A DNA stretch of 64,000 bases from Isurus oxyrinchus (lineage: Eukaryota), in the NCBI GenBank assembly GCA_026770705.1, contig JANJGN010000189.1:682001-746000 (forward strand), given 5' to 3'. How positions within the stretch are numbered: position 1 is the stretch's first letter; each line of letters starts with the position of its first letter. The notes beneath the pieces are model-generated. The model made no database searches and was not told the origin of the DNA. It saw only the letters and a list, made by a program, of their open reading frames with translations. A program made the translations under genes and the position numbers. Below, piece after piece: positions 4,780-52,594 of this stretch.

Positions 4780-4919
4780 TCAAACAGTCTGTCGACTTCC
4801 TTTCACTGTTTGTCTCTCCCAGACACAGACTCCAGCGATAGTGATAACCACAGCCACAAGGAATATCACAGCTCGTATTCCCAGGATCAGGATCACGTGC
4901 AGAATCTCTCCTCCACTGT
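4780..4919 (-). CDS. Gene B terminal exon: transmembrane segment with Arg and short tail, (D)SGGEILHVILILGIRAVIFLVAVVITIAGVCVWERQTVKGSRQTV*
   Basis: Pyrimidine-rich acceptor (TTCTCTAG), phase 1, hydrophobic stretch with a single Arg, TGA at 4782-4780. Not in the ORF track; translated by hand. Confidence 0.85.
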
Positions 4920-6033: not shown

Positions 6034-6168
6034 GTTCCACAGTGATGGTTATGAACCCCTCCACTGCTCCATGTTCATTCTCTGAGCACACTGATAGTCT
6101 CCAGTGTCCCTGGATGTAACGTGAGGAATCACCAACCACAGCTCATTGTTGGAACTTGTTCTGTTCAT
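6034..6168 (-). pseudogene. 3' half of an Ig-domain exon (NELWLVIPHVTSRDTGDYQC), 5' half missing, with a 1-nt frameshift
   Basis: DxGxYxC motif. It is 1 nt shorter than the mirror copy at 41747-41882, and no upstream Ig half is visible. Confidence 0.7.
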
Positions 6169-6508
6169 TGTGATATTCAGATGTCAGGACCGGACTCAAC
6201 AAGACAGATTGCAGGTTTACCAACAGAAAGTGAACAACAATTTATATTTAAAGGGAAGAGAGTGCTGGTTAATCAGCAAGTGGTCTCTGATTGGAGGAGG
6301 TGTTGCCATGGAAAATAATGTGTGTGAGATGTAAAGTTTAGACAGCTTGTCTCTTCATTCAGCAACAATCAAATAAAGATCAGTTAACTTCTATCGACTG
6401 TGAAGCACTTTGAGAGGCATGAGAATGTGGACACTGAGAACGGGCTGCACTGTCAGAGGGTCAGCGCTGAGGGAGTGCTGATGTAGAATGAAGGGTGTCC
6501 GTACTTAC

Positions 6509-6805
6509 CTTGCACAGTTAGTACGAGGGTCCGCTCCGATGAAACAGATGGATATCTCACTCTGCAGCTGAGAGTGTGTCCGTGGTGTTTGAGTGATGGG
6601 ATCAGGGTCAGAACAGAAGTATAGGTCAGAGTGACACCATGCTGAGTTACAGTGTTTGAGACTGATCCAGGTACGTCAGTGGGAGTGTCCCAGGTTAAGA
6701 CAGGTGCTGCTGTTCCATTGCACGTTGTGTTGAAGGTGCAGCTTACATCCACACGCTTTCCTGCAATAATTTCAGCAGGGAATATCGTGGGTTTATCTGT
6801 GAAAT
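6509..6805 (-). CDS. Gene B C2-set Ig exon (DFTDKPTIFPAEIIAGKRVDVSCTFNTTCNG...LTW...LSCRV...LTVQ)
   Basis: AG/GT boundaries, 297 nt, phase 1-1. B-strand Cys, extra BC-loop Cys, Trp and F-strand Cys as in Siglec domain 2. Confidence 0.9.
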
Positions 6806-19048: not shown

Positions 19049-19417
19049 CAGAAACGTGAAGCTGGGTTACAGGGTAATAGTTATGGCTCGGACCATTGTC
19101 AAATTCTATTCTGAAAAAATAAGGTCCTGCATCTTCCCGTCTGATGTTGTTTATAATCAGGGAACAGTCGCCATCTTTCAGGTCTCCAGACAGCCGGGTC
19201 CGATGGCGGAACCGTGGTAACTCGTGACTGTGATCCTTGGAGTGAAAGGCAATGGGAGCCCAGGGAATCTGTTTCTCATTATTAAACCAGAGTCCACCTC
19301 GCGGTTGGTTTTCCAGACACGATGGATAACTGTAATGACATGGAATCTGTACACACGAACCTTCCTGAGCTGTCACCTCTCGTGGAGTGTCACCTTTCCA
19401 CTCTTGTGACAGTCCAA
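19049..19417 (-). CDS. Gene B V-set exon (2nd), Arg+, KQIPWAP loop class
   Basis: Canonical splice sites, 369 nt, open frame. Confidence 0.88.
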
Positions 19418-21129
19418 CTGGGGAGAGAAATCTCAATATTTATCTCTGGATGGTTTGTGGATCCACTAGACTCAAAATTTACAGATGAGGCTGAATTGGG
19501 GGGATGGTCAATACTGAGGAGAATGGCAACAAATTATTTTGGCAGGAAGAATAGAAAAACAGGATATTATTTAAATGGAGACAGGCTGCAGAATGCAGTA
19601 CAGAGGGATCTGGGTGTCCTTGTACATGAATCACAGAAAGTCAGCATTCAGGAACACCACGGAATGAGGAAGGCAAGTGGAATGTTGGCCTTTATTGCAA
19701 AGGGATGGAGTATAAAAGGAGGGAAGTCTTGCAACAGCTGCACAGGGCGTTAGTGAGATTGTAACAGGATCATTGTGTACAGGCAGTTCAGAGAAGCTTC
19801 ACTGGGCTGATTCCTGGGATTAAAGGGTTTGTCCTGTGAGGAAATGTTGAGCAGGTTGGGCCTGTATCCATTGGAGTTTAGAAGAATGAGGGGTGACCTT
19901 ATTGAAACATATCCAATTCCGAGGGGGCTTGACAGGGTGGATGCTGGGAGGATGTTTCCCCCTCGTGGGGGAATCTAGAACCAGGGAGCACAGTTTCGGA
20001 ATGAGGACTCTCCCATTTAAGACTGAGATGAGGAGGAATTTCCTCTCTCAGAGGGGCGCTAGCCTGTGGAATTCTCTTCCCCAGAGAGCAGTGGAGGCTG
20101 GGCCATTGAATAGACTCAAGGCTGAGTGAGGCAGGTTTTTGATCGACAAGGGAGTCAAGGGTTTGGGGGACAGGCAGGAAAATGGAGTTAAGGCCACAAC
20201 CAGATCAGCGAGGGCAGGCTGGAGGGGCCGAATGGCCTGCTCCTGTCCCTATTTCTTATGTTCCTACATTCTTACCTTCTTAAAATATTAAAGCTGCAGA
20301 ATAAACATGCAAGTGACTGACCCGCTCGACCCACCTTCCATCTGGGGGTCCCATGGGGAGGACCCTTCCTGAGCCAGATCCACCAGCCAACATGGTCTGG
20401 ATCCGAGCACAGGAGACACGGGGGGGAGTGACTAACAGGTTCCTTGTGACAGGCCCTGTCTGTCCAATGGCTGGCTTTCAGCTGCCAAGGCCAGAGTGGT
20501 CCTTGCTAAAACCGGCTCAGGACAGGCCAGGACCCCTGTGCAGACCCCCTCCAGCGCTGCAGCCTCTGTACAAATCCCTCATGCGCTTGTGGAGAGACAC
20601 AAACAAGGCTGTACATTACCGAGGAGAATCCCCTCTACGGACTAAGGGGCTGACTCATCACCTTGAACTCAGCAAATGAGGAGGCTCTCGCTCGGTATCG
20701 GGGCTTGGCATTCGCTCAATAAAAATAATCAAATGACACTTTGGTCAGAAATCTAAGCAGGTTGTACATTCCCTCAAAAATAAGACTCAATCTGGGGTCG
20801 AGGGTCAAAGGGCAACAACTTATATTTTCACAACAACTTGAACATGACAAATCACCCCAAGGTGCTACACAGGAGCGTCATAAAACAAAGTATGTCACGC
20901 AGACACATGTGGAGATATTAGCGACAGCTGACCAGAAGGGATCGGTGTTATGGAGAAACTTAAAAGAGGGATGAAATGGTTAGTGAGAGAGAGAGAGTGA
21001 GTGTGAGGGATGGAGAGGGCTTAAGGGAGGGTATTACGGAGCTCGGTCCCCAGGCAGCTGAAGGCATGGCCACCAATGTTAGAGTGTTGAGATCGGGGGA
21101 TGGTCAAGAGGCTGGAATTGGAGGAGCGC

Positions 21130-21590
21130 AGAGACCTCTGAAGGTTGGTGGGTCTGGAGGAGGTTACAGAGATAGGGAGGGTTGTAGGGGCTGGAGGAGG
21201 TTACAGAGATAGCGAGGTTTGTAGTGATTGGAGGAGTTATAGCGATAGGGAGGTTTTTAGGGGCTGGAAAAGTTAAGAGAGATTGGGAGAGTGTAGGGTC
21301 TGGAGGAGTTTGCAGAGGTCGGGAGGGTTGTAGTGACTGGGGCAGGTTACAGGGGCAGGGAAAGTTGTCGGGACTGGAGCAGGCTACAGAGATAGGGAAG
21401 CTTTTAGGGGCAGGAGGAAGTTACAGAAATAGGGAGGTTTGTAGTGGCTGGAGGAGGTTGCAGAGATTGGTAGGTTTGTTGGGCAGGATGAATTTACAGA
21501 TATAGGGAAGCGGTAGAGGCTTGAAGAGGTTACAGAGAATGGGATGGTTGTAGGTACTGGAGGAGGACGAGAAGATTACAGGGATAGTGA
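21130..21590. repeat. ~35-bp degenerate minisatellite (GGAGGAGGTTACAGAGATAGGGAGGGTTGTAGGGGCT-like) within a LINE 3' region
   Basis: Tandem repetition. A longer mirror copy lies at ~53820-54750. Confidence 0.8.
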
Positions 21591-21599
21591 GGAAACAAA

Positions 21600-22560
21600 G
21601 ATGAAAATTTGGACGTTGACATTTTGCTTGACCAGGAGCCAGTCTCGGTCATCGAGCAGAGCGGGTGATAAGGGAACGGGACTTGGTGTGAGTAAGGACG
21701 TGGTCAGCAGTTTTGGATGGCCTCAAGTTTATGGAGTGTAGAGCGTGTGTTGGAACAGTCGAGACTGGAGGTAATGAAGGCGTGGATGAGGGTTTCAGCA
21801 GCAGATGAGCTGAGACAGGGTGACGTCGTGCGATGTTACGGAGGTGGAAATAGACGGTGTTAGTGAGGGCGCAGATAGGAGGCCGGAAGCTCATCTCAGG
21901 ATCAAATGGGACAACAAAGCTGTGAACAGATTGGCTTCAATCTCAGAGAGCTGCCAGGGAGAGGAATGGAGTTGGTAGCGAGGGAACAGAGTTTGGAGCG
22001 GGGAATGAAGACAATGGCTTCAGTCTTTCCAATATTTAATTGGAGGGAATTTCTGCCCATCCAGTACTGGATGTCGGATAAGCAGCCTGATAATTTAGCA
22101 GCAGTGGAGGAGTCGAGAGAGGTGGTGGTGAGGTAGAGCTGGGCATCCTCAGTGGACAGGTGAAAACTAACACTGTTCAGATGATGCTGCAAAGCCATTG
22201 CAAGTGATTCTCTGGCTACGATGAGATGGATAAGAATGGAGCCAGGGGAGAGCAGTCCCACCCAGCTGGACCACAGTGGAGAGGTGTTGGAGGAGGATGG
22301 TGTGGTCGAGCGTGTCAAAGGCTGCAGACAGATCGAGAAGGACGAGGAGGGAAAGTTGACCTTTGTCACAGTCACACAGGATGCCATTTGTGACCTTGAT
22401 AAGAGCTGTTTCAGCACAGTGGCTGGGGTGGGAACCTGATTGGAGGGATTCAAACATGGAGTTCCGGGAAAGATGGGAACAGATTCGGGAGATGGAAACA
22501 GGTTGCAGGACTTTGGAGGGGAAAGAGAGGCTGGAGATGGGACGGGGGTTTACACGGACA
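21600..22560 (-). mobile_element. L2/CR1-clade LINE reverse transcriptase fragment
   Basis: ETALIKVTN...LLDLSAAFDTLDHTILL and LQLNIGKTEAI motifs. Mirror copy at ~52860-53800 (+). Confidence 0.88.
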
Positions 22561-22821
22561 GTGTGAGGGGTGGAAGGTGTAGTGGGGAGGAGATACTTCA
22601 CTCAGGGGGGAGGTGTCATCACCCCTCAGCTCGGTTTACTTTACAGCTATGATGTGGATTCAATCACACACAATAAGCTTATGGATCTGGGAGCAGAAAT
22701 AGACAAATCATTAAAAATAGTGGCGCTGGTTAACACGGCCAAAAAACAAGCAAATCAAACACTATTATTTCCCATTGAGTGTTGGATGTGAATTGTTGAG
22801 TAATTATAACACAGCACTTAC

Positions 22822-23196
22822 CAGAAACGTGAAGCTGGGTTTCAGGACGGTCGTTGTATCTATTCCTGTTGTCAAATTCTAGGCTGAATAAATAATATCC
22901 TGCATCTTCCCGTCTGATGTTGTTTATAATCAGGGAACAGTCGCCATCTTTCAGGTCTCCAGACAGCTGGGTCCGATGGTGGAACTGTGGTAACTCGCGA
23001 TTATGATCCTTGGAGTGAAAGGCTATAGACCGTTCATTCCATTTTTCCCAATTCCTTCTCATATACCAGATTCCGACTGGTGATCTCGCTACTAAATATG
23101 ATGGATAACTGTAATTACATGGAATCTGTACACACGAACCTTCCTGCGCTGTCACCTCTCCTGGAGTGTCACCTTTCCACACTTGTGATAGTCCAA
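22822..23196 (-). CDS. Gene B N-terminal V-set exon, essential Arg replaced by Ser (DAGYYLFSLEF)
   Basis: CCCTAG acceptor and GTAAGT donor, 375 nt, phase 1-1, open frame. Confidence 0.88.
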
Positions 23197-23599: not shown

Positions 23600-25846
23600 T
23601 GTGATGTAAGTATAATAATTTTCATAATATTTTATAGTATATTGTGAAGTAGGTTTATGGGGGTACGCATGATGGGTCTGCATGTGATTTAAGTACATTT
23701 GGAGTTAATTAGATTGGAAGTTTAAAATGATCAAAAGGAGCTAGGTGCTTGACATGCTATTGAGGAAACATGGATGCTGCTTAGCATGGAAGGTATGAAG
23801 AGAATTTGCATTTTTCTATCAATGAAGGGGTTGTTGGATTTCAAAGGAATCTTAGCTTGTTTACAACTAGCCAGATAAGCAAGACTAAGGAATGTGTTTA
23901 TTTTTCTCAAAGGCTCCTGGCAATATGGGCACCACGAAAGAGTTTGTTATGAGGAAGATACAGTTTCAAAAACATTTGGAACAATAGAATTTTCATGTTA
24001 CAAAGAGAGAAATATATATCTATCAGGGAGAATGAAAGGCTATGTGTCAGAATGCCATGTAAGATCTAACACGAGTGTGTGATATAGTCTTAATGAAACC
24101 TCTAGCATTTGTGCACAAGCCTGCTATCCAACAGAACTGAAGTTGGGGAAAAGCCACTTGGAATTCCTCTGTGCAGGGTATTGCTTTTATATTGTGTTAA
24201 CTTGCTGGGTTTGTTTTAAATATAAAGTCTATTTTTGGACCGTTGCCTTAAAGGGAGTGTAACTGGGAGTCAGTTTAATTCAGAATTTTAAGAATTATTA
24301 TAGTGGTAATTGTAGAGTTATGTATGTGCTTCAAATCATTTATTTTGAGAGCAAGTATTTTAATTTAATTTTCAAATCGCTAAAGGTCTTTATGTAATTA
24401 TTGCTTCTGAATTCAGTGCACACATCTCATAATAAATACAAATTGCAAAATCATTATGATCATGTGACCATCTTTCTCTCATGGACTTGGTCTGCCTGGC
24501 ACACATCACCTGCCAAGTGATAACACTGTTGTAATATGCCTTTCAGGGACAGCAGCATGACATCACTCGAGGGGAAGTGTGTCATGTGATTTTAGGAATT
24601 GGGTATAGCTTAAGTAAGTTCTATGTGTATTTGTGTGTGTTAGGGATAAGGTATATGTTTAAGTTCAAGTTTAGTTTGATTTCTGTATTTGTGTGTTAAG
24701 AAAGGGGGAAACTTCAGTTTTGGTTTCATTTTCGTTTAGCAATCTAATGGGGTTTGATGTCTCTTGAAGGAAAGTCAAAACAAACACAAGGTGTAAGAAA
24801 CTGTGCTATTGCTAAGCAACAGTGATCCAGAGGGACGGACCCATAGAGACAGAGAAAAACAGAAATGTGCTTTCAGTTTGGTTGAAAGGAGTTGCCAGGA
24901 GAAGCAGCAAAGGAGCGGGACAGATAGTCAGTCCCAAAGTAAAGAAGAAGCCAAAACCATCGAGTGGAACAGGAGAAAGAGCCAAGAAGACCTTCTACTC
25001 CAAAGAAGATCAGGAATCTGAAAAAGGTCCTGTTAAGTCGAGATAAGATTGAGGAGCAGAGGAGGGATCCAAGCTAAAAGAGAAAAAGCAAAAGGACACA
25101 GACCTAAAGCAAAAAAGGCTGATTAGAAGCCAGAAGATCATAGGAGACAGCCAAATGTTGATGTCTTCTTACTATGACCATGTGAAGCCATGGTGTTCCA
25201 TTGGCATGACTGAGCATTGGAGAGACAACGCGTAGAAGGAAGGCTGAATGCATGTGGCGATCCAGGGGGCAGGAACATGGGAAGGAGAGTTTGAAATCGT
25301 GGAAGTGGACCCTTGTGGAAGGTCTCTGAGTGAAAGTGTCATGTTAGAGAAGATTCCAAAGAGAGCACTTGACGAGTAGAGATTGGAAACTCTCATGTGA
25401 AAGATACAGTTTTGTAAGACCAGTTGCCTCATGGTGAAACAAGTGTCTGGAGTCAGTTGAGCTGAAACCCATAGCATTTGTTCCAATTGGGGTCTATCAC
25501 TTGGTTACAGAATGTGGTGTCCCTGACACCAGGTCGTCTATTGGTTTGCATGAACTGTGTACTTAGTGTGAACATGAGAGTATAAGATAGTTATTGTAAC
25601 TTGTATTCTACTTATGAATCTGTAAAGGTATAGGTCTGGGTGAAGGAGTAATGTAATATAGTTTGTCTTTCCTAGTTTAATAAATGTTTTATTCTTTTGT
25701 TAGAAGGTCATCAGATGATTCCTGTGACTCTGTTCAGTAGCTGCACTCCACATTCCTAAATAAAAAATAAAAGTTAGGACCTATCAAGCTGAGTTCCACC
25801 CTGGGATCTGACTTGCCCAGTAGTAACATCAGCTGGGATGATAACA
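23600..25846. mobile_element. Two adjacent LTR-like elements (~23600-24525 and ~24530-25846)
   Basis: Each starts TGT and ends GATAACA. The second has an AATAAA near its end. Mirrored at ~50300-51970. No target-site duplications confirmed. Confidence 0.45.
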
Positions 25847-26029
25847 CCATCCAGTCCAAGTTTCACTTTGGCCTGTGAGCAGAACACAGCTCACACAGTT
25901 TGGCTGCAGGTGTCTCCCAGCTTTCTATCCTTGTATATCTGTTCTCATGTCCCCATTCTAAATAACTGAACCCACAATGTATTTACCCAATTCCGTATCA
26001 GTGGCTGGTGCCTTTATATCATTATAAAA

Positions 26030-29000
26030 ACACAACATGGTGATCAGCGGTGGCCAAACATTCTGGCCGCAAGATTCAGTACAGGTATGACATGGTGAAC
26101 AGCCTGAGATCGAGCTACATGACATGAGACGACCCTTGACGCTTTGGTCAGACCACAACAGAGACACAGCATCAGAGAGGGTTGAAATCGCAGTGTACTG
26201 ACTGCTCAGGAAACCTTTGAAGACACAGTGACGGGAAAGAGCTCAAGTAATGAGCTGGGGAGCAGACGGATCCCTCGTGGTGAGATTACAGCACACGGCC
26301 TGTAGGTCAGTGAGTGGGACAGTGTGTATCGCCAGGACCAGCAGCGGGTTAGCTCAGTCAGGGAAGGCGAGGGACCCGGGTGTGGGCTGGATCGATAGTG
26401 AGCGAGGGAGAGTCAAACACACAAAAACCATTATAAAAATCAGCCCAGAGAAGTTAGTGATTATAACGGGCGGCTTCGAGATTGCTGAACAGCAAATTGA
26501 ATAAAAAACAAAGACTCCATTACTCCGTGGTGTGTTCCTGCCACAACCCATCTTCGTGGGCGGAGCTTCGGAAAAGCGCACGAAAGGGGCTAAAGCGACA
26601 CTCATCCCAGGTCCTGTAGGAGAAGGAAGGTCAAAGGAATATTGTCAGAATGTCCATGAAATTCCCCAGTTTGAACTGGGATGTAGCTGACCGACTATCT
26701 GAATTCAGAATGTTTAAACAGCGTACAGAGCTCTGGTTTCCTGATTCAGGTGTGACTGAACCAGACGAACAAGCCATAAAAATTCACCTCGTGATTGGGA
26801 ATGAAGGTCTACACAGGCTGAACACGTCAGGATTAACAGCAGAAGAGCGAAAGGATCCCCAATAGATATGGACGATATTGGAAGACAGGTTCAGAATCAG
26901 GTGAAACTCCATATTCATCAACTAGAGTTTATGTCATTTCATCAGCCTACACAATCCATAGACCACTTCATCAGCCGATGTAGAGAAAAGGGTACGCACT
27001 GTGATTTCAAACACAGAGCCTGCAGACACAGTTGTTGAGTTGGTGATCGCATCCACTCCCATGGAAGCCTTCCAGAAAGATCTGCTAGATAAGACCAAAA
27101 CCTATAGCATTGAAGAGCTACTCAAGGATGGACATAAATACGAAGTGATCCTCGCAGGTCAACGAAGCTTACAGGTCCTCAGTACAACATCAATTGTTGA
27201 CACACTCACTAGAACATCCAAACCTAGTGAGACGTGTGGAAGGTGTGGCCTTCTGCAGGCACCAAGGAAATGCCCAGCTTTCCACCAATCCTGCAAGGCT
27301 TGTGGCAGAAAGGGCCAGTGACAGCGGCAGAGCACTAGAGCAAAGGCTGATGCAGCTGCAAAGAGCCGTGCGCTGATCCAAACAGACCCTACACAACGGG
27401 GAACCTTCAATCAATAAGAATGACCATCCACTATCCCATCAGGAACATATACATGTGGTGACTGACAAACCAGGAAATGGCGATGATGTGCACGGCGAGA
27501 CGAGGTGCGGTGATCGATATTCCACCTCTCACACATATCCTGTCGTGGCTTGTCAATAAATTGTAGATTGTTGTCCATAGTGATCTCTCTGGGCACATCA
27601 AATAAACTGAAAATGTCCCATAGTGGTAGGATTTTCTGGCCCCACCCACTGCCAGGATTGTCCGGTCCGGCCGAAAGCCAATGGATTTATATTTGTCCCA
27701 ATCTCCCAAGGCAGGTCCCACCATGACCGGGCCGGAAAACCCCGGCCTAGAGTTTGTGCAACATTTGTGCTCAACGTTTTGTGCAATTGTTGAACAATTT
27801 CACACCTTTTACACCATCGATCTCACGGAGAACAGATGCTGTCACATCACCCGCACTATTGGCCAAGATTCCAATTATCTGCCCTGAGAAAGTGGCTACC
27901 TCCCCTTTATTGGCCAAGAGTGACACAAGGGCAAGTGCCAACATTCCCCTCCCCCAGCCCACCCCAGCAAATTTTCAAAGACATATATCCAAGGACATGG
28001 AAGTCCATGGGGAAACCTACTGCTGTGTACAACACTTCACCAACTCCATGTGCGGAATACATAGTCCTGGGGTGCAAGTACAATCAATCCTCCTGGGTGT
28101 CACAGATGTTCTACATTGTGGAGACTAAAGGCTGAGCAATTGCAAGTCTACCGGCATGCGGTGACCTCACACTAGTGACTATCCATGGAATCTGTCAGAC
28201 CTGACATGGGTCAACCTCAGAAACTACCCCATCAACTCAGTTCATGGACATAACATTGAAATATGCAGAAAGTTTCAACAGTATTTGTAGTTTCAAGGGA
28301 GCTGCAACATTACACCTGCAGGAGAATGCAAGTCTGTCAATTGATCCAGTACATTTAGCACAACAGAAATGCCAGCAGCTACAAGAGGGAACAGTGAAAA
28401 ATTCTACAGGAACTGTGGAAATATCATTGAAAGGGTGGCTGATTCAACTTGACGTCATCAGGATAAGTGAGGCATCTCCCAGGGAGTCATTTTTAATGGC
28501 AGGCATCGCATCATACCGGAACCTTTGTGATGATATATTCTTCAACAACTTCATCCCTCACACATGGGCACAGATCAGACAGGGAGACTCACAAGAGATA
28601 CAGTCACTGGCCGGGTATGAACAATGACCTTGAAGTCGTTGTAGGGAAGTTTGAGGCTTGTCAAGAGGATGAGCCAAGTCAACACAAAGAACCACTGATT
28701 CCACAGGAAATTCCTGCCTATTCTTAGTCCAAATTCACATCTGAATCCTTTCATGTCCATGTCACTGACTTCATCGTCATCGTAGACAGCTTTACCAGAT
28801 ATCCCGTTATTCAAAAATAACACAACACACCGAGCACTACTGGCGCACACATTCTAAGCACTATTTTCAGTTTATTTGGTGAGCCTAGGGACATGAGTAC
28901 ATATAATCTGGAATATCAATCACACAACTTCTTCTCCTCATTACCCCAGATCTAACGGCCTAGCTGAATGAATGATTCACACCAGTGAAATCCCTAATTC

Positions 29001-30925: not shown

Positions 30926-30965
30926 CTTGGAGAAGTGACAGGAGGAAGTAGGATTTCCCGATCAT
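30926..30965 (-). CDS. Gene B leader exon, coding part MIGKSYFLLSLLQ(V)
   Basis: ATG at 30965, 40 nt, GTAAT donor, phase 1 compatible with the V exons. Confidence 0.82.
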
Positions 30966-31415: not shown

Positions 31416-31560
31416 CCAGGACCTGTCCGACTGCTCGCCTGGGGAGGAACTGCCCACACGCTCTGCCTGGGCTGAATGACCTCTTCCTGTGCTGCTCCCT
31501 CTGTGTATTTAATGAGAAAGGGTTGATGTGTCTCTGTGAGACAAAATGAGGAAGTTGGAT
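31416..31560 (-). promoter_or_regulatory. Gene B putative promoter and non-coding exon 1, with PU.1/ETS box (31543-31556)
   Basis: Homologous to the other three promoter blocks, with a G|GTAAGT donor at 31416. Confidence 0.55.
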
Positions 31561-32109: not shown

Positions 32110-34745
32110 ACTGGCGATGAGGTGAATAACAAGGAAGAAAAAGCAAGGAATGAGAGCAAGGGAACCGAAATCCGGCTGTGCCTCACGCAACGATTATAAA
32201 TATAATTTCCATCCTAATAACCGAAGCAGTCCCCTCGAAGAATGCTGCAGTTTGGAAGAGTTGATCCTTTCGACCCAACGGTGGGCGATTGGTCTCATTA
32301 TGGTGAACTCCTCGCGTTCTTTTTCCAAGTGAATGACATTGATGGGGAGGAGAAGAGGCGAGCGACCCTCTTATCCACGTGTGGGAGTAAGATTTAGGGA
32401 TTGATGCGAACTTTAATGTCACCCGGTGCCATGGATTCAAAAAGTTTAGATGATATAGTGAACCTTGTGAAGATTCCTTCCCAGCCCCAGCCCTCGGTAA
32501 CGATGCAACGGTCCAAATTTAACTCAAGAAATAGAGTCCCAGGGGAGGCAGCTGCATGTTATGTGGAAAGTCTGAAAGAGTTAATAGGACATTGTGAGTT
32601 TGGTAAATCTATAAATAATATGCTGAGAGATCAACTGGTGTGCAGTATAAATGAAGATGCGATTCAGAAGAGATTACTGTCTGAAACAGATTTGGATATT
32701 CAGAAGGTGCTGGGAATAGTGCTGGCTATGGAAAGAGCAGTGAGGGACTCGAAAAACATATGGAGAGTGCAAAATGTCACCGTCCTCATGTTGGGTGAGG
32801 AGCCTCAGCCAAGAAGTGCGGGAAAATGTACAGCTCTGATGAGAAACGGGAAACCTCCACCACTAGCAGCAAATAAAAAGGAATGACTTAGCAGAGAAAA
32901 CATGGAATAATGTGAACAGAGGTGAAGCAGACAACCTCGTAGTGAATGGAACTTTAAAAAAATCAATTGTTTTTACTGTCATCGAAACAGAGAGCCCATG
33001 AGAGATTGCAAGGATAGAATCAGGCAGAGTTTCAACCAAGAGAGAAAACCCTGTGAGATCCATAACATAGAAGAGCCTGAAGTAACAGATTCAGATAGTT
33101 ATTCATTGTATAATTTAAAGGTAGGAAGAACAGAGCCAATCTATGTAACAGTGAGGGTGAATGATAGAGCTCTCAGAATGGGGGTGGACACAGGAGCTAA
33201 CATTACGCTAATTGGGGAGCATACTTTCAAATACTGGAATCATGGGGAAAGTCAATTAAATTTGGAAGAAACAAATGACTAATTGAAAACTCACACGGGA
33301 GAAGACATTCAAGCCAAAGACATAAGCAGGGTTGTTATACAGTATGGAAGTCAATCAGTAAAATGACCCTTGATGATGGGAGCTGGTGAGGGACCAAGCC
33401 TCCTTGGACGAAACTGGCTGAAAGATATTAAACTGGATTGGTCTGAGATCTTCCAACTGAGAGCCAGTGGGCTACCTGAGCTACTACAAAAATACATCTC
33501 AGTTTTCCAAGATGAACTCGGGGAGATCCAGGGGCTGCAAGCAAAAATTCATGTGGATCCAGACTCTACCCCTCTGATTTATGAAGGCACGGCCAGTACC
33601 TTATGCAATGTGGGAAAAGGCAGATGCTGAATTGGGCAGGTTCTAGAAACTGGGAGGGATACAATCTGTGCTGCCCTCAGAATGGGCAGCACCAATAGTC
33701 CCTGGACCTGAGCCTGGCCAAAGTGTTTGAATTTGTGGAGATGACAAGAATTGACTGGAACGGCCTACACGGAGCTGATATGAGCCATGCTTATCAACAA
33801 TTGGAGTTCGAGAAGGCCTCCCAGAAGTTTGTCACAATTAATACACACAAAGGGTTGTATCAATAAACCGGTTTGCCTTTCAGAGTCTCCTCTGCAGGAT
33901 CACAGAGTCTTAATGGCACAGCAGGAGGCCATTCAGCCCATCGTGTCTATCCCAGCTCTCCAAATGAGCATCATGACCTAGTGTCATTGCCCTGCCTTTC
34001 CCCATGCCCCTGCACCTTTTCTCTATCCAAATAACCATCTAATGCCCTCCTGAATGCCTCGATTGAACCTGCCTCCACAACACTTCCAGGCCGTGCATTC
34101 CAGGCCCAAAACTTAGTTGTGTGAAAAAGTTTTTTCTCACGTCACATTTGCAACATCAGTCATGCTAAATGTCAGCGGGAAGGTGGAAAGGAGGCCAGGA
34201 AGACAGGAAACTGGACATGACTGGCATAGTCATGACAGGAAGCTGACCGTAGGAGAGACGGTATATGTGAAGGATTTTAGAGAGGGGCCAAAGTGGTCAC
34301 CGGGTGAAATAAATGCAGCGATTGGAACTCTTTCTCACCATGTGAAAGTGGAAGACCGAGTCATATGGAGACATGTGGGTCATATAAGGAGGAGAGAAAC
34401 AAAGTACCAAGAAACAATCCCACCAGTCTTCACGGCTGCGTCTATGTCTCCTGTTGAAAGAACTCAGCTGAGAACAGATGTGTCTGAAGGGTCCGTTGGA
34501 CCTGCAAGAGTTGAGGAAACAGGTTTGCAGGTGTCCACCGAAGAAGCTGGTGTTGGGACAACATCAGAAAAGGAGACTCCTGACAAAGCATCTGAAGCTG
34601 TGGATCTGAGACGTTCCAGACGCATAAGGAAACCCCCCAGAAAGACTGAATTTGTAAATTACTGATCTGTGTAAATCATCTGATACTTTGAGAAAATGGT
34701 AAAAGTAAGTGTAAAATGTATTTCTGAGTAAAGGGGGAGGGTGGT
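32110..34745 (+). mobile_element. Degenerate Ty3/Gypsy LTR retrotransposon (gag, protease, partial RT, integrase C-terminus) with a LINE-tail insertion at ~33900-34140
   Basis: PBS-like TGGCGATGAG at ~32112, gag LRDQLVC..IQKRLL, protease VDTGA and LLGRNWL, terminal LRRSRRIRKPP, and a polypurine tract at ~34730. Confidence 0.85.
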
Positions 34746-35581: not shown

Positions 35582-35698
35582 AAGAAAGATGAGAAGGATC
35601 TGGAAATGAAATCTAACCGCGGAGTCAATCCTGATACAGATGATGATATTTACGCAAACTGTGAATTTGCTGAGGATTCTGTTTATGGGAATTTATAA
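35582..35698 (+). other. Orphan receptor cytoplasmic terminal exon, KKDEKDLEMKSNRGVNPDTDDDIYANCEFAEDSVYGNL*
   Basis: Acceptor TTTCTGTTTCTATTACAG, phase-0 open frame of 38 codons with two acidic-context YxN motifs, ending at TAA. No upstream partner exon identified in the window. Confidence 0.6.
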
Positions 35699-38539: not shown

Positions 38540-38683
38540 AAGCACTTCCTCATTTTGACTCACAGTGACACATGCACCCTTTTTAATTAAACACAAATAG
38601 GGAGCAGCACAGGAAGAGGTCATTCAGCCCAAGCAGAGCGTGTGGGCAGTTCCTCCCCAGGCGAGCAGTCGGACAGGTCCTGG
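38540..38683 (+). promoter_or_regulatory. Gene C putative promoter and non-coding exon 1, with PU.1/ETS box (38543-38556)
   Basis: CACTTCCTCATTTT and ACAGGAAG motifs, with a G|GTAAGT donor after 38683. Confidence 0.55.
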
Positions 38684-39875: not shown

Positions 39876-40250
39876 TTGGACTGTCACAAGATTGAAAAGG
39901 CGACACTTCACGAGAGGTGACAGCGCAGGATGGTTCGTGTGTACAGATTCCATGTCATTACAGTTACTTATCAAATTTCGTAGGGAGATCACGTGTCGGA
40001 ATCTGGTTGAAAGGAATAGATGGGAACCCACAGCCGAAATGGTCTATAGCCTTTCATTCCGAGGGTCACAGTCACAGGGATCAAAGATTCCACCATCGGA
40101 CCAGGCTGTCTGGAGACCTGAAAGATGGCGACTGTTCCCTGATTATAAACAACATCAGACGGGAAGATGCAGGACCTTATTTTTTCAGAATAGAATTTGA
40201 CAATGGTCCGAGCCATAACTATTACCCTGTAACCCAGCTTCACGTTTCTG
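39876..40250 (+). pseudogene. Gene C V-set exon (Arg+) with premature stop
   Basis: VGLSQD*KGDTSREVTAQDGSCVQIPC...YFFRIEF...LHVS, 375 nt. Confidence 0.85.
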
Positions 40251-41109: not shown

Positions 41110-41406
41110 ATTTCACAGATAAACCCACGATATTCCCTGCTGAAATTATTGCAGGAAAGCATGTGGATGTAAGCTGCACCATCAACACAACGTGCAATGG
41201 AACAGCAGCGCCTTTCTTAACCTGGGAAACTCCCACTGACGTACCTGGATCAGTCTCAAACACTGTAACTCAGCATGGTGTCACTCTGTCCTATACTTCT
41301 GTTCTGACCCTGATCCCATCACTCAAACACCACGGACACACTCTCAGCTGCAGAGTGAGATATCCATCTGTTTCATCGGAGCGGACCCTCGTACTAACTG
41401 TGCAAG
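41110..41406 (+). CDS. Gene C C2-set Ig exon (open frame)
   Basis: 297 nt, AG/GT, mirror of 6509-6805. Confidence 0.8.
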
Positions 41407-43553: not shown

Positions 43554-43693
43554 ACAGTGGAGGAGAGATTCTGCACGTGATCCTGATCCTGGGAATACGA
43601 GCTGTGATATTCCTTGTGACTGTGGTTATCACTATCACTGGAGTCTGTGTCTGGGAGAGACAAACAGTGAAAGGAAGTCGACAGACTGTTTGA
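43554..43693 (+). CDS. Gene C TM exon with Arg (codon 43598-43600) and short tail
   Basis: SGGEILHVILILGIRAVIFLVTVVITITGVCVWERQTVKGSRQTV*, mirror of 4780-4919. Confidence 0.8.
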
Positions 43694-46299: not shown

Positions 46300-46445
46300 T
46301 TACCCACTTCCTCATTTTGTCTCACAGTGACACATCCACCCTTTCTAATTAAACACACAGAGGGAGCAGCACAGGAAGAGGTCATTCAGCTCAAGCAGAG
46401 CGTGTGGGCAGTTCCTCTCCAGGCGAGCAGTCGGACAGGTCCTGG
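46300..46445 (+). promoter_or_regulatory. Gene D putative promoter and non-coding exon 1, with PU.1/ETS box (46305-46318)
   Basis: Mirror of the gene A promoter, with a donor after 46445. Confidence 0.55.
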
Positions 46446-47899: not shown

Positions 47900-50120
47900 T
47901 GAGAAGGACAGGGAACAAGAGGTTCCTGGTATCATTTGCATATTTCTTGACAATTATATAAGTGTATAGATCTGTTGAATATTTGAGTCTCTAAAGCGTA
48001 GAGGTAATCTGCTGTTATATCGAGATCTTGTGGTGGCAAAATTGTCTGGAGGTTTCTTTAATTGCTCACATTGATCTGTGGGATTGTCATTCTTCGATGT
48101 TGTCCCTGGTTTCAATTGACATTACACCCTTGATGCAACTGAGGAGGCTTTAAACTAATATGGCAGGGGATCGGATCCCGAGAGGAGGTTCAACAGAGAG
48201 AGATGCACGGCCAAAATTAGAAGAGAGAGCAAATGAAACTGGAAGGCATAGAAATTATTGGCCATTTAAGGCTCAAGATAGCGTGGCAAAGTTGGATTGT
48301 ATTAATTTTAATGCAAGGAGTCTGACAGACTTGCATTCTCCTGCAGGTGTAATGTTGCAGCTCCCTTGAACCTGCCAATATTGTTGAATCTTTCTGCATA
48401 TTTCAATGTTATGTCATGAACTGAGCTGATGGGATAGTTTCTGAGACTGGGACAGACATAAATCCATTGGCTTTCGGCCGGACCGGACAATCATGGAAGT
48501 GGGTGGGGCCAGAAAATCCCACCCCTATGGGAACATTTTCAGTTAATTTGATGTGCCCAGAGAGATCAATAAAGACCACAATCCACAATTTATTGGCAAG
48601 CCACGTCAGGATATGTGTGAGAGGTGGAATATCGATCACCGCTCCTAGTCTCGTCGTGTACATCATCGCCATTTCCTGGTTTGTCAGTCACCACATGTAT
48701 ATGTTCCTGATGGGATAGCGGATGGTCATTCTTATTGCTTGAAGGTTCCCCGTTGTGCAGGGTTTGATTGGATCAGCGCACGGCTCTTTGTAGCTGCATC
48801 AGCCTTTGCTCTCGTGCCCTGCCGCTGTCAATGGCCCTTTCTGCCACAAGCCTTGCAGGATTGGTGGAAAGCTGGGCATTTCCTTAGTGCCTGCAGAAGG
48901 CCACACCTTCCACACGTCTCACTAGGTTTGGATGTTCTAGTGAGTGTGTCAACAATTGATGTTGTACTGAGGACCTGTAAGCTTCGTTGACCTGCGAGGA
49001 TCACTTCGTATTTATGTCCATCCTTGAGTAGCTCTTCAATGCTATAGGTTTTGGTCTTATCTAGCAGATCTTTCTGGAAGGCTTCCATGGGAGTGGATGC
49101 GATCACCAACTCAACAACTCTGTCTGCAGGCTCTGTGTTTGAAATCACAGTGCGTACCCTTTTCTCTACATCGGCTGATGAAGTGGTCTATGGGTTGTGT
49201 AGGCTGATGAAATGACATAAACTCTAGTTGATGAATATGGAGTTTCACCTGATTCTGAACCTGTCTTCCAATGTCGTCCATATCTATTGGGGATCCTTTC
49301 GCTCTTCTGCTGTTAATCCTGATGTGCTCAGCCTGTGTAGACCTTCATTCCCAATCGCGAGGTGAATTTTTATGGGTGGTTCGTCTGGTTCAGTCACACC
49401 TGAATCAGGAAACCAGAGCTCTGTACGCTGTTTAAACATTCTGAATTCAGATAGTCGGTCAGCTACATCCCAGTTCAAACTGGGGAATTTCGTGGACATT
49501 CTGACAATATTCCTTTGACCTTCCTTCTCCTACAGGATCTGGGATGAGTGTCGCTTTAGCCCCTTTCGTGTGCTTTTCCGAAGCTCCGCCCACGAAGACG
49601 GGTTGTGGCAGGAACACACCACGGAGTAATGGAGTCTTTGTTTTTTATTCAATTTGCTGTTCAGCAATCTCGAAGCCGCCCGTTATAATCACTAACTTCT
49701 CTGGGCTGATTTTTATAATGGTTTTTGTGTGTTTGACTCTCCCTCGCTCACTATCGATCCAGCCCACACCCTGGTCACTCGCCTTCCCTGACTGAGCTAA
49801 CCCGCTGCTGGTCCTGGCGATACACACTGTCCCACTCACTGACCTACAGGCCGTGTGCTGTAATCTCACCACGAGGGATCCGTCTGCTCCCCAGCTCTTT
49901 ACTTGAGCTCTTTCCCGTCACTGTGTCTTCAAAGGTTTCCTGAGCAGTCAGTACACTGCGATTTCAACCCTCTCTGATGCTGTGTCTCTGTTGTGGTCTG
50001 ACCAAAGCGTCGAGGGTCGTCTCATGTCATGTAGCTCGATCTCAGGCTGTTCACCACGTCATACCTGTACTGAATCTTGCTGCCAGAATGTTTGGCCACC
50101 ACTGATCACCATGTTGTGTT
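47900..50120 (-). mobile_element. Gypsy-like remnant, mirror of 26030-29900 with an internal deletion
   Basis: Near-identical gag peptides (48828-49148, 49284-49499). Confidence 0.75.
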
Positions 50121-52216
50121 TTTATAATGATATAAAGGCACCAGCCACTGATATGGAATTGGGTAAATACATTGTGGGTTCAGTTATTTAGAACAGGGAC
50201 ATGAGAACAGATATACAGGATAGAAAGCTGGGAGACACCTGCAGCCAAACTGTGAGCTGTGTTCTGCTCACAGGCCAAAGTGAAACTTGGACTGGATGGT
50301 GTTACCATCCCAGCTGATGTTACTACTGGGCAAGTCAGATCCCAGGGTGGAGCTCAGCTTGATAGGTCCTAACTTTTATTTTTTATTTTGGAATGTGGAG
50401 TGCGGCTACTGAACAGAGTCACAGGAGTCATCTGATGAACGTCTAACAAAAGAATAAAACATTTATTAAACTAGGAAAGACAAACTATATGACATTACTC
50501 CTTCACCCAGACCTATACCTTTACAGATACATAAGTAGAACACAAATTACGATAACTATCTTATATTCTCATGTTCACACTAAGTACACAGTCCGTGTAA
50601 ATCAATAGACGACCTGTGGTCAGGGACACAACATTCTGAAAGCAAGTGGCAGAGCCCACTTGAAACAAATTCTATGTCTCATCTGACCCCAGACGCTTGT
50701 TACACTGTGAGCCAACCAGTCTCACTGAACTGAGATATCCATATGAGGATTTCCAATCTCCACTCTCCAAGAACTCGCTTTGGAATCTTCTCCAACATGA
50801 CACTTTCACTCAGACACCTTCCACAAGGGTCCACTTTCACTATTTCAAACTCTCCTTCCCATGTTCCTGCCCCTTGGATCGCCACGTGCATTCAGCCTTC
50901 CTTCCACGCCCTGTCTCTCCAATGCTCAGCCGTGTCAATGGAACACCATGGCTTCACATGGCCGTAGTAATGAGTCACCAACCTGTGGTGTCTCCTAGGA
51001 TCTTCTGGCTTCTCACAAGCCTATTTTGCTTTAGGCCTGTGTCCTGCTGCTTTCTCCCTTTATGCTTGAAGCCTTCTTCTGCTCCTCACTCTTAACTTCA
51101 CTTAACAGGGCCTTTTCCAGATTTGACTAGAACGTCTTCTTGGGCCCTTTCTCCTGTCAAACTCTATAGTTTTGGCTTCTTCTTTACTTTGGGACTGACT
51201 ATCTGTCCCGCTCCTTTGCTGCTTCTCCTGGCAACTCCTTTCAACAGAACTGAAAGTACTTTTCTGTTTTTCTCGGTCTCTGTGGGTCCTTCCCTCTGGA
51301 TCACTGTTGCTAGGCAACAGCATAGTTTCTTACACCTTGTATTTGTTTTGACTTCCCTTCAACAGTCATAAAACCTCAATGGAATGCTGGCTTCTTTTTA
51401 ACTCAAGTTCCCCCTTTTCTCAACACCCAAATACAGAAATACAAACTAAACTTGAACTTAAAGATAGACCTTTTGCCTAACACACACAAATACACATCGA
51501 ACTTACTTAAGCGAACACCAGTTCCTAAAAATAACATGACACACTTCCCCTCGAGTGATGTCATGCTGCTGTCCCTGAAAGGCATATTACAACAGTGTTA
51601 TCACTTGGCAGGTGATGTGTGCCAGGCAGACCAAGTCCATGAGAGAAACCTGGTCACACTATCATAATGATTTTGCAATTTGTATTTATTATGAGATGTG
51701 TGCACTTAATCCAGAAGCAATAACTCCACCAATACCTTTAGAGATTTAAAACAATAAATTAACATATTTGTCATCAAAATAAAGGATTTCAAGCACATAC
51801 GTAACTACAAGACTGCTATCATAACTCCTAAAATTCCTAATTAACCTGACTCCCAGTTACAGTCCCTTAAAGGCAACAGACCAAAAATAGATGTTAGATT
51901 TAAAACAAAATCAGCAAGTTAACCCAATGCCCCGGACATTGGAATTCCAAATGCATTGTCCCCAACTTCAGTTCTGTTGGAGAACAGGCTTCTGCACAAA
52001 CAGGGTCCTGAGGACCATGAACCAATGTAGAATGAACTTTTCCGCTTTTGTGTCCAGGATTCTCTTCCATCCGGTGTGATACCTTGTGGAGTTCATTGTG
52101 TGTCCTGTAGATGGTCCACACTGCAGCCACTGTGCCCGAGTGATGGAGGGGGTGGATATCGAGTCTAGTGGATCAACAAAACATCCAGAGTTAAATATTG
52201 ATATTTCTCTCCCCAG

Positions 52217-52594
52217 TTGGATTGTCACAAGAGTGGAAAGGTGATACTCCACGAGAGGTGACAGCGCAGGAAGGTTCGTGTGTACAGATTCCATGTCATT
52301 ACAGTTATCCATCAGATTTGATAAAGAAACCACAGGTCGGAATCTGGAAAATGAGAAGATACATACGGAACAAATGGTCTAAATGGTCTATAGCGTTTCA
52401 CTCCAAGGGTCACAGTCGCGAGTTACAACGGTTCCGCCATCGGACCCGGCTGTCTGGAGACCTGAAAGATGGCGACTGTTCCCTGATTATAAACAACATC
52501 AGACGGGAAGATGCAGGACATTATTTTTTCATGATAAAATTTGTCAATCGTCCGAGCCATAACGTTTCCCCTGTAACCCAGCTTCAGGTTTCTG
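52217..52594 (+). CDS. Gene D N-terminal V-set exon, essential Arg replaced by Met (DAGHYFFMIKF)
   Basis: CCCCAG acceptor and GTAAGT donor, 378 nt, open frame. Confidence 0.9.

Follow-up and report, generated by a model that had tools for sequence, protein, structure and literature searches.

In a very large family of Siglec-like paired receptors of a shark, the outermost V-set domains often lack the F-strand arginine (essential Arg), whereas the V domains beneath them keep it. Among 314 full V exons fetched from the genome of Isurus oxyrinchus, this Arg is absent from 76 of the 147 exons that encode the outermost of several V domains (tips) and from 0 of 166 inner or single-V exons; the resulting share of 52% Arg-less tips is not a genome frequency, since the sample is enriched for tips like those of genes B and D (B1- and D1-like). 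Loss of the F-strand essential Arg abolishes canonical sialic-acid binding in Siglecs. We propose, with a probability of roughly 45%, that the tip V domain has been released from canonical sialic-acid binding and would sense anionic non-self surfaces as a variable cationic domain, carried by a predicted disulfide-linked stalk of Arg-keeping V domains.

Results

The window, i.e. the whole 64-kb stretch of DNA that was analysed, holds genes B, C and D of this family, which comprises hundreds of genes (Table 1). Gene B is ordered as leader, tip exon V1, six inner V exons, C2, a broken C2 remnant and a transmembrane (TM) exon, with every splice phase equal to 1. Its inner V exons sit in a 2.3-kb tandem unit with one V per unit, and the C2 remnant is probably skipped in splicing. 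The Arg in the membrane segment and the short Tyr-less tail suggest that gene B is of the activating type. Gene D is ordered as leader, V1, V2, uncharged TM and tail exons, whose two Tyr motifs we take, by consensus, to be ITIM- and ITSM-like; no C2 exon of gene D is visible within the window and there is no C2 match in its two closest paralogues. In gene C the V exon directly adjoins the C2 exon, so that its V domain is not a tip above other V domains. The Trp-to-stop change of this exon recurs in 6 of the 13 C-type single-V exons listed, which shows that the C-type pseudogene was itself amplified; intact C-type copies exist too.

Table 1. Exons of genes B, C and D in window coordinates
Feature	Position	Strand	Characteristics
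Gene B leader exon	31005-30926	-	ATG at 30965; phase-1 donor
Gene B tip V-set exon V1	23196..22822	-	375 nt; phase 1-1; AG/GT ends; stop-free; F strand YLFSLEF, Ser codon AGC at 22885-22883 replaces essential Arg; BC and CC' loops cationic/aromatic; BC-loop Cys absent
Gene B V2	19417..19049	-	Arg retained; extra BC-loop Cys at 19319-19317
Gene B V3-V7	17112-16744, 14803-14438, 12502-12137, 10201-9836, 7899-7534	-	Arg and BC-loop Cys in all
Gene B first C2-set exon	6509..6805	-	CD33-like extra Cys six residues past B-strand Cys
Gene B second C2 exon remnant	6044..6183	-	5'-truncated and frameshifted
Gene B TM exon	4780..4919	-	Arg inside membrane segment; short Tyr-free tail
Gene C single V exon	39876..40250	+	Arg present (YFFRIEF); in-frame TGA at 39893-39895, sixth codon region
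Gene C C2 exon	41112-41405	+	directly after single V exon
Gene C TM exon	43556-43690	+	activating type
Gene D tip V exon V1	52217..52594	+	F strand YFFMIKF; Met (ATG at 52531-52533) replaces Arg; Lys at +2
Gene D V2	55712..56080	+	Arg and BC-loop Cys both retained
Gene D uncharged TM exon and tail exons	59719..62578	+	Tyr motifs LLYANP and TEYAQI

All five V exons scanned pass the Pfam V-set and Ig_CD22 cut-offs. In the PDB, gene B V1 is most similar in sequence to sialoadhesin, Siglec-5 and MAG; the Ser of its F strand aligns with the F-strand Arg in the motifs NFRFE of sialoadhesin and FFRVE of Siglec-5. Siglec hallmarks are also present outside the V domains, namely a C2 domain and an Arg-bearing TM in gene B and a TM with a Tyr-motif tail in gene D. 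Among named proteins, Siglec-like models of Carcharodon and Cetorhinus come closest, with at most 77% identity. An AlphaFold model of the homologue P0011 (pLDDT 77.7, pTM 0.57) has CD33 and MAG as its best fold matches and agrees with our strand and loop assignment, since in the model the respective segments lie between B and C and between C and C', while strand F bears the Arg.

The earlier note on this DNA had singled out positions 22822..23196, which match exactly one exon, V1 of gene B. The loop sequences it quoted for the first domains of genes B, C and D are correct, and the losses in B and D are indeed different substitutions, to Ser (AGC) and to Met (ATG). Its statement that the first V domains are devoid of the Arg holds for B V1 and D V1 but not for C V1, which retains it, and thus for two of the three genes.

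Genome-wide, at least 301 leader exons match a strict leader pattern exactly (reversed control: 0) and a search for V exons returned 1029 first-look candidates on contigs of 0.15-4.2 Mb; these totals may count both haplotypes. The sampled DNA consisted of a contiguous 380 kb around the window and of 140 targeted 8.5-kb stretches picked from searches with B1, D1 and C1. It yielded 332 V matches, and removal of 18 partial ones left the 314 full exons. First and inner exons were told apart by their intron flanks, with a clean separation: 147 tips, 35 single/first, 119 + 9 inner, 3 second exons with an unclear flank and 1 unclassified exon. Genes of the family encode 1-7 V domains. Copies occur in near-identical bursts, as illustrated by 19 exons that are 98-100% identical to B1, and 14 of the 147 tip exons are broken. 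A second, distant class of V exons (~30% identical) is interspersed in the cluster (C189:559940, C189:627530, C189:774953 and C189:815001), and in the one copy seen in full, Tyr (YYFYVD) occupies the position of the essential Arg. A member with leader, single V and C2 on a 19.9-Mb contig (L240, C34:15186039) is a possible synteny anchor.

In the Arg column of the 147 tips we found R in 71, T in 41, S in 21, M in 7 and G in 7. A contiguous 444-kb tile, which is unbiased, gives the same picture, with 6 of 7 tips Arg-less compared to 0 of 20 other V exons. An assembly artefact or haplotype duplicates were rejected as the main cause of the pattern: contig C52 alone has 28 of 54 tips without Arg versus 0 of 63 other exons, and the copies differ. 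Searching the genome for the canonical F-strand context returned 540 AGN (100 of the 540 among the matches listed), 7 GGA and 6 AAG codons. All 7 GGA matches are tips of one family, while of the AAG (Lys) codons 4 are in inner and 2 in single-V exons; one further Ser case outside tips is a single-V pseudogene. Arg losses thus occur outside tips as well, though seldom, and most of them are conservative. As 28 of 122 columns are invariant among inner exons, the invariance of their Arg alone is unremarkable.

The codons suggest that Arg was lost in tips on at least four occasions, by separate routes: one led to Ser, Gly arose in each of two backgrounds, and Thr/Met arose where Lys had already been gained at position +2; the near-intermediate YLFRLEF survives in the family. 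The 76 Arg-less copies are hence not independent but represent only ~4-5 mutational events, and on the tree the Arg column takes 15 parsimony changes for ~5 mutations. Exons are intact in 71 of 76 Arg-less and 62 of 71 Arg-keeping tips, and at the exon level this count led us to reject pseudogene decay as the cause of Arg loss. Annotated first V domains of other sharks have R in 24 of 25 cases and K in one, so the losses look recent, with the reservation that other shark assemblies hold few copies; collapsed shark assemblies probably conceal how large the family is.

A second feature separates inner V domains from all others. A Cys seven residues past the B-strand Cys, in the BC loop, is present in 127 of 128 inner exons (119/119 + 8/9), in 0 of 147 tips and in 0 of 35 single/first exons. 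Counted by position, 126 of the 130 V exons situated below another V carry it, the exceptions being three second V exons with His and one gap; further exceptions are one inner exon with Phe and one pseudogene first exon with Cys. Proteins of other elasmobranchs (sharks and a ray) follow the same rule: the Cys is present in 37 of 47 inner V domains, in none of the 25 that come first of several and in 1 of the 43 single ones, and several of the Cys-less inner cases fall in apparently fused gene models. All 147 tips retain the conserved first Cys. The extra Cys of the C2 domain, six residues past the B-strand Cys, matches CD33, and in the V2-C2 pair of P0011 all six V and C2 cysteines as well as the F-strand Arg align with CD33; the Cys positions also align with MAG. 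The Siglec cysteine pattern of intra-V and V-C2 bonds is thus found as an alignment of Cys positions. According to the accessible part of PMC10122656, Siglecs bridge the V domain to the domain below by a disulfide. Based on this bridge, the inner-only Cys and the CD33-like Cys of C2, we predict a V-V disulfide from the BC-loop Cys of the lower V domain to the conserved first Cys of the V domain above, which would copy the V-C2 bond. Among the 11 tandem-V proteins listed from other vertebrates, primate Siglec-12 included, no inner V domain has a BC-loop Cys at +7.

The surface of tips also differs from that of other V domains. The mean charge of the BC and CC' loops is +4.5 in tips, +0.9 in single-V exons and -0.6 in inner exons, and all six tip families are positive (+2.4 to +6.6). 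Tip loops contain about twice as many aromatic residues and are rich in Trp and Tyr; the length of CC' ranges from 10 to 20 residues. The 71 Arg-keeping tips of the sample have the same cationic loops, so the change of the loops does not need the loss of Arg. Arg-bearing tips of a similar kind occur in Carcharodon and Cetorhinus proteins. The G-strand Tyr two residues past the aromatic ligand position is much less constant in tips, where 69 of 147 exons have it, than in single-V exons (35 of 35) and inner exons (118 of 119).

Selection was analysed on 107 unique intact tips of the 147, on 79 unique intact inner exons of the 119 and on 96 unique C2 exons, using a purpose-written codon model and leaving out the gapped CC' columns. 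Exon-wide dN/dS (M0) is 1.02 for tips and 0.74 for inner exons. On a single tree of the tips, M2a beats M1a (2dL 60.7) with an omega of 2.9 at 18% of sites, and fixed-region omega amounts to 0.77 for the framework, 1.73 for BC, 1.05 for CC' and 1.68 for F-G. Since recombination was significant (site incompatibility near vs far 0.20 vs 0.31 in tips and 0.16 vs 0.42 in inner V; permutation p 0.003), the site test was repeated on segment trees. Here, the C'-E (p 0.0005) and EF-G segments of tips (p 3e-6; posterior of the Arg site 0.92) were significant, whereas the A-C segment that holds the BC loop was not (p 0.54). One of three inner V control segments (p 0.016) and two of three C2 control segments (p 0.007-0.009) passed as well; the site test thus yields false positives on these data, even if the tip signal, with 2dL of 25 and 15, is larger than that of any control segment (at most 9.9).

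Counts of distinct variants, which are insensitive to recombination, place no region of the tips significantly above 1 and give a framework dN/dS of 0.57 (p 0.02). Change in tips is nevertheless non-uniform. Tip codons have 1.8 distinct nonsynonymous variants on average, and shared nonsynonymous variants amount to 2.75 per codon in the BC loop and 1.9 in the F strand, compared to 0.64 in the framework. Shared amino-acid variants in tips versus inner exons number 22 vs 3 in BC, 15 vs 1 in the F strand and 46 vs 34 in the framework. A tip-specific excess is seen in two of the five regions tested (Fisher p 0.007 for the BC loop and 0.005 for the F strand) and is not significant in C'-D, FG and CC'. 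FG-loop types differ as much at synonymous (pS ~0.55) as at nonsynonymous sites, so they appear to be old modules being reshuffled, and identical 3' modules are found on different tip families. In the framework, by comparison, pN between tip families is 0.03-0.06 and pS is 0.06-0.15. Flanking introns were discarded as a neutral yardstick on account of their patchy divergence of 0.02-0.30. Overall, the earlier note was right that change concentrates in loops on a conserved framework, but the signs of the diversifying selection that it read from this are mixed: non-uniform change and the better fit of M2a speak for it, whereas the exon-wide M0 value, the passing controls and the variant counts do not. 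Positive selection on tips is plausible, not proven.

Tip exons are included in transcripts, as V1-V2 and leader-V1 joints were found in one sample. A GT-AG joint between V1 and V2 (19417-22822) is present in runs X2 and X3, with short sides of 29 and 20 letters and contigs at 97% likeness, and loose ends in run X1 match leader-V1, V1-inner V and V-C2 junctions. These joints could stem from any near-identical paralogue; none of the runs is recorded as RNA, and it is the spliced joints themselves that indicate RNA. Leader-to-V2-type joints in runs X3, X5, X6, X8 and X12 were rejected as proof of V1 skipping: single-V paralogues 98% identical to B2 exist, and the Cys codon is replaced by one for His in the contigs of X5 and X12. 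Two further observations concern gene B. In its first intron, positions 25628-26615 have a higher depth of X1-X3 contigs, with a loose end at 26615 whose sequence corresponds to the leader exon, which points to a cryptic or alternative exon spliced to the leader. In another joint, the acceptor is an alternative site within V2 (19329).

The same tip families occur on Arg-TM genes with short tails and on genes with Tyr-motif tails, with activating and inhibitory signalling predicted from these modules. Thr/Met tips were found on 8 activating-type, 4 inhibitory-type and 5 third-type genes; the Ser tips, on genes with 3-7 V domains, belong to the Arg-TM activating type in all 9 resolved cases of 21. 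The TM Arg is located near the outer end of the helix, presumably more like FcR-gamma-coupled than DAP12-coupled receptors. Near-identical ectodomains on opposing predicted signalling modules and gene conversion between members were both found; judged by sequence, the layout is that of paired receptors such as Siglec-5/14, as described in the accessible parts of PMC6288428 and PMC13358205.

Several further elements accompany these genes. An orphan tail exon of the third receptor type with two Tyr motifs (35582-35695) lies upstream of gene C, its own TM and ectodomain exons not being nearby. Nearly every leader exon is preceded, at a distance of ~400-500 bases and in the same orientation, by a copy of a cytoplasmic-tail exon (cytY), for example in the window in the 483-564 region and in paralogues at 31416-31496, 38603-38683 and 46365-46445; these copies may have been co-opted as 5' untranslated exons or may mark the duplication unit. 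In several inhibitory-type genes a two-exon Tyr-motif tail unit is tandemly duplicated (window 60787-62578 and 63736-63816, also L041, L056 and L072), giving alternative or doubled tails. Degenerate LTR-retroelement gag/pol-like stretches are found between and within genes (32398-33750, 48425-50190 and 25961-27800).

Discussion

We tentatively favour a reading in which the outer V domain repeatedly lost the sialic-acid Arg, left canonical sialic-acid binding and would now be a variable domain, positively charged and aromatic, that senses anionic non-self surfaces, with loop modules being exchanged patchwork-fashion between tips. The inner V domains keep the Arg, would bind sialic acid and would form the predicted disulfide-linked stalk. 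The putative ligands of the tips, suggested by the character of their loops, are anionic microbial or membrane surfaces. The near confinement of Arg loss to tips (76/147 vs 0/166), the cationic Trp/Tyr-rich tip loops, the inner-only Cys and the sharing of tip types by both kinds of tails argue for this reading. On the other hand, 71 of the 147 sampled tips combine the same loops with an intact Arg, and R is kept in 24 of 25 first V domains of other sharks' annotated proteins. Moreover, the ~4-5 loss events could arise from relaxed constraint, given 1.8 nonsynonymous variants per codon, the signal of positive selection is not robust and the FG types are apparently old reshuffled modules.

Relaxed constraint combined with birth-and-death evolution is the strongest competitor, although we regard it as rather unlikely. 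V2 would have made the tip Arg redundant, segmental duplication would have multiplied a few neutral losses, gene conversion would have spread or erased them, and the diversity of the loops would be old. The exon-wide dN/dS of 1.02 and the variant counts, with no region significantly above 1, are what such a process would leave behind, as are the strong recombination with 15 parsimony changes for ~5 mutations at the Arg column, the burst of 19 exons 98-100% identical to B1 and the 14 broken tip exons; the step from Thr to Met fits a CpG transition. However, the framework of tips is still under purifying selection (dN/dS 0.57; pN 0.03-0.06 vs pS 0.06-0.15), change is concentrated on the ligand face, the loops are cationic in six of six tip families and the 2dL of two tip segments exceeds every control.

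It is somewhat less probable still that the tip remains a glycan binder of shifted specificity, in which Lys at +2 and Arg/Lys of the CC' loop hold sialylated, polysialylated or sulfated glycans or glycolipids. Lys at +2 of the F strand is present in 48 of 48 Thr/Met tips and the A-strand Trp in 147 of 147 tips. There are also precedents: the accessible parts of PMC10122656 and PMC8161119 report glycolipid binding by Siglec-6 independent of the canonical Arg and the use of a second Arg for sulfate by Siglec-8. But position +2 is Glu in Ser and Gly tips, many tips deviate in the G-strand motif, and mutation of the canonical Arg abolished binding of Siglec-1, -5, -9 and -10 (PMC10122656, accessible part).

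An adaptive loss of function, in which the tip dropped its Arg to escape sialic-acid-mimicking pathogens or self-activation and became a cap or shield over the inner binding domains with no new ligand, could draw on the primate precedents of human Siglec-XII (SIGLEC12; sialic-acid binding lost through R122C) and great-ape Siglec-5 without the Arg (PMC6288428, accessible part), on the argument that pathogens imitate host sialic acid (PMC13358205, accessible part) and on the 9 of 9 resolved Ser tips on activating-type genes, where self-binding would harm, but it is improbable, as the inner domains of the same receptors retain the Arg, 34 resolved Arg-keeping tips are likewise on activating-type genes and the diverse cationic loops would be left unexplained.

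Several components of the system have been described before, namely loss of the Arg, two V domains, pairing through gene conversion and the binding of proteins or non-canonical ligands by Siglec V domains; in the accessible part of PMC11323535, for example, a bacterial protein binds the V domain of Siglec-5/-14. Primate Siglec-12/Siglec-XII shares two tandem V-set domains and an Arg-type loss with the shark genes. However, it is one gene with one fixed loss, compared to hundreds of genes with 1-7 V domains and apparently at least four tip-only losses in the shark, and V2 of Rhinopithecus Siglec-12 has no Cys seven residues past the B-strand Cys, unlike the shark inner V domains. Siglec-5/Siglec-14 and Siglec-11/Siglec-16 carry near-identical V domains on inhibitory and activating tails via gene conversion as in the shark, but they are two-gene pairs with a single V domain, whereas many tip families are distributed over three TM types in the shark. 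The V-C2 module of CD33, MAG and sialoadhesin provides the best sequence and fold matches of the shark domains; this likeness is one of best-hit similarity, and with one V domain these proteins have no V-V junction, unlike the shark stack. Unreviewed gene models of frogs, turtles, lynx and arowana contain two to three adjacent V-set domains, with a mixed Arg status between domains (P0096, P0108, P0124, P0156 and P0177 from frogs, P0185 and P0208 from turtles, P0207 from lynx and P0205 from arowana). Tandem V domains may have arisen repeatedly. In a literature search that left subscription journals mostly outside, we found no paper on this shark family, its size, the split between tips and inner domains or the inner Cys; in the accessible part of the whale-shark genome paper (PMC8455134), Siglecs are mentioned once, as a jawed-vertebrate family.

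Going beyond the preferred reading, one may picture a lamniform germline-encoded combinatorial innate repertoire of several hundred Siglec-built genes, with a rigid, disulfide-stacked and sialic-acid-binding V column of variable height, a hypervariable cationic tip for microbial polyanions and loop modules shuffled by gene conversion onto activating or inhibitory tails. 'Non-self' would then be read at the tip and 'self' along the stalk. We consider this broader picture speculative and somewhat unlikely as a whole.

Siglec biology is built on a single N-terminal V domain with a single essential Arg. If the tandem V domains of the shark receptors have separate roles, a self-glycan sensor could have become a diversified non-self sensor without surrendering its old site. 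The inner-only Cys provides a concrete structural prediction, and with natural Arg-plus and Arg-minus tips that are only a few residues apart the role of Arg-less Siglecs such as Siglec-XII and ape Siglec-5 would become directly testable.
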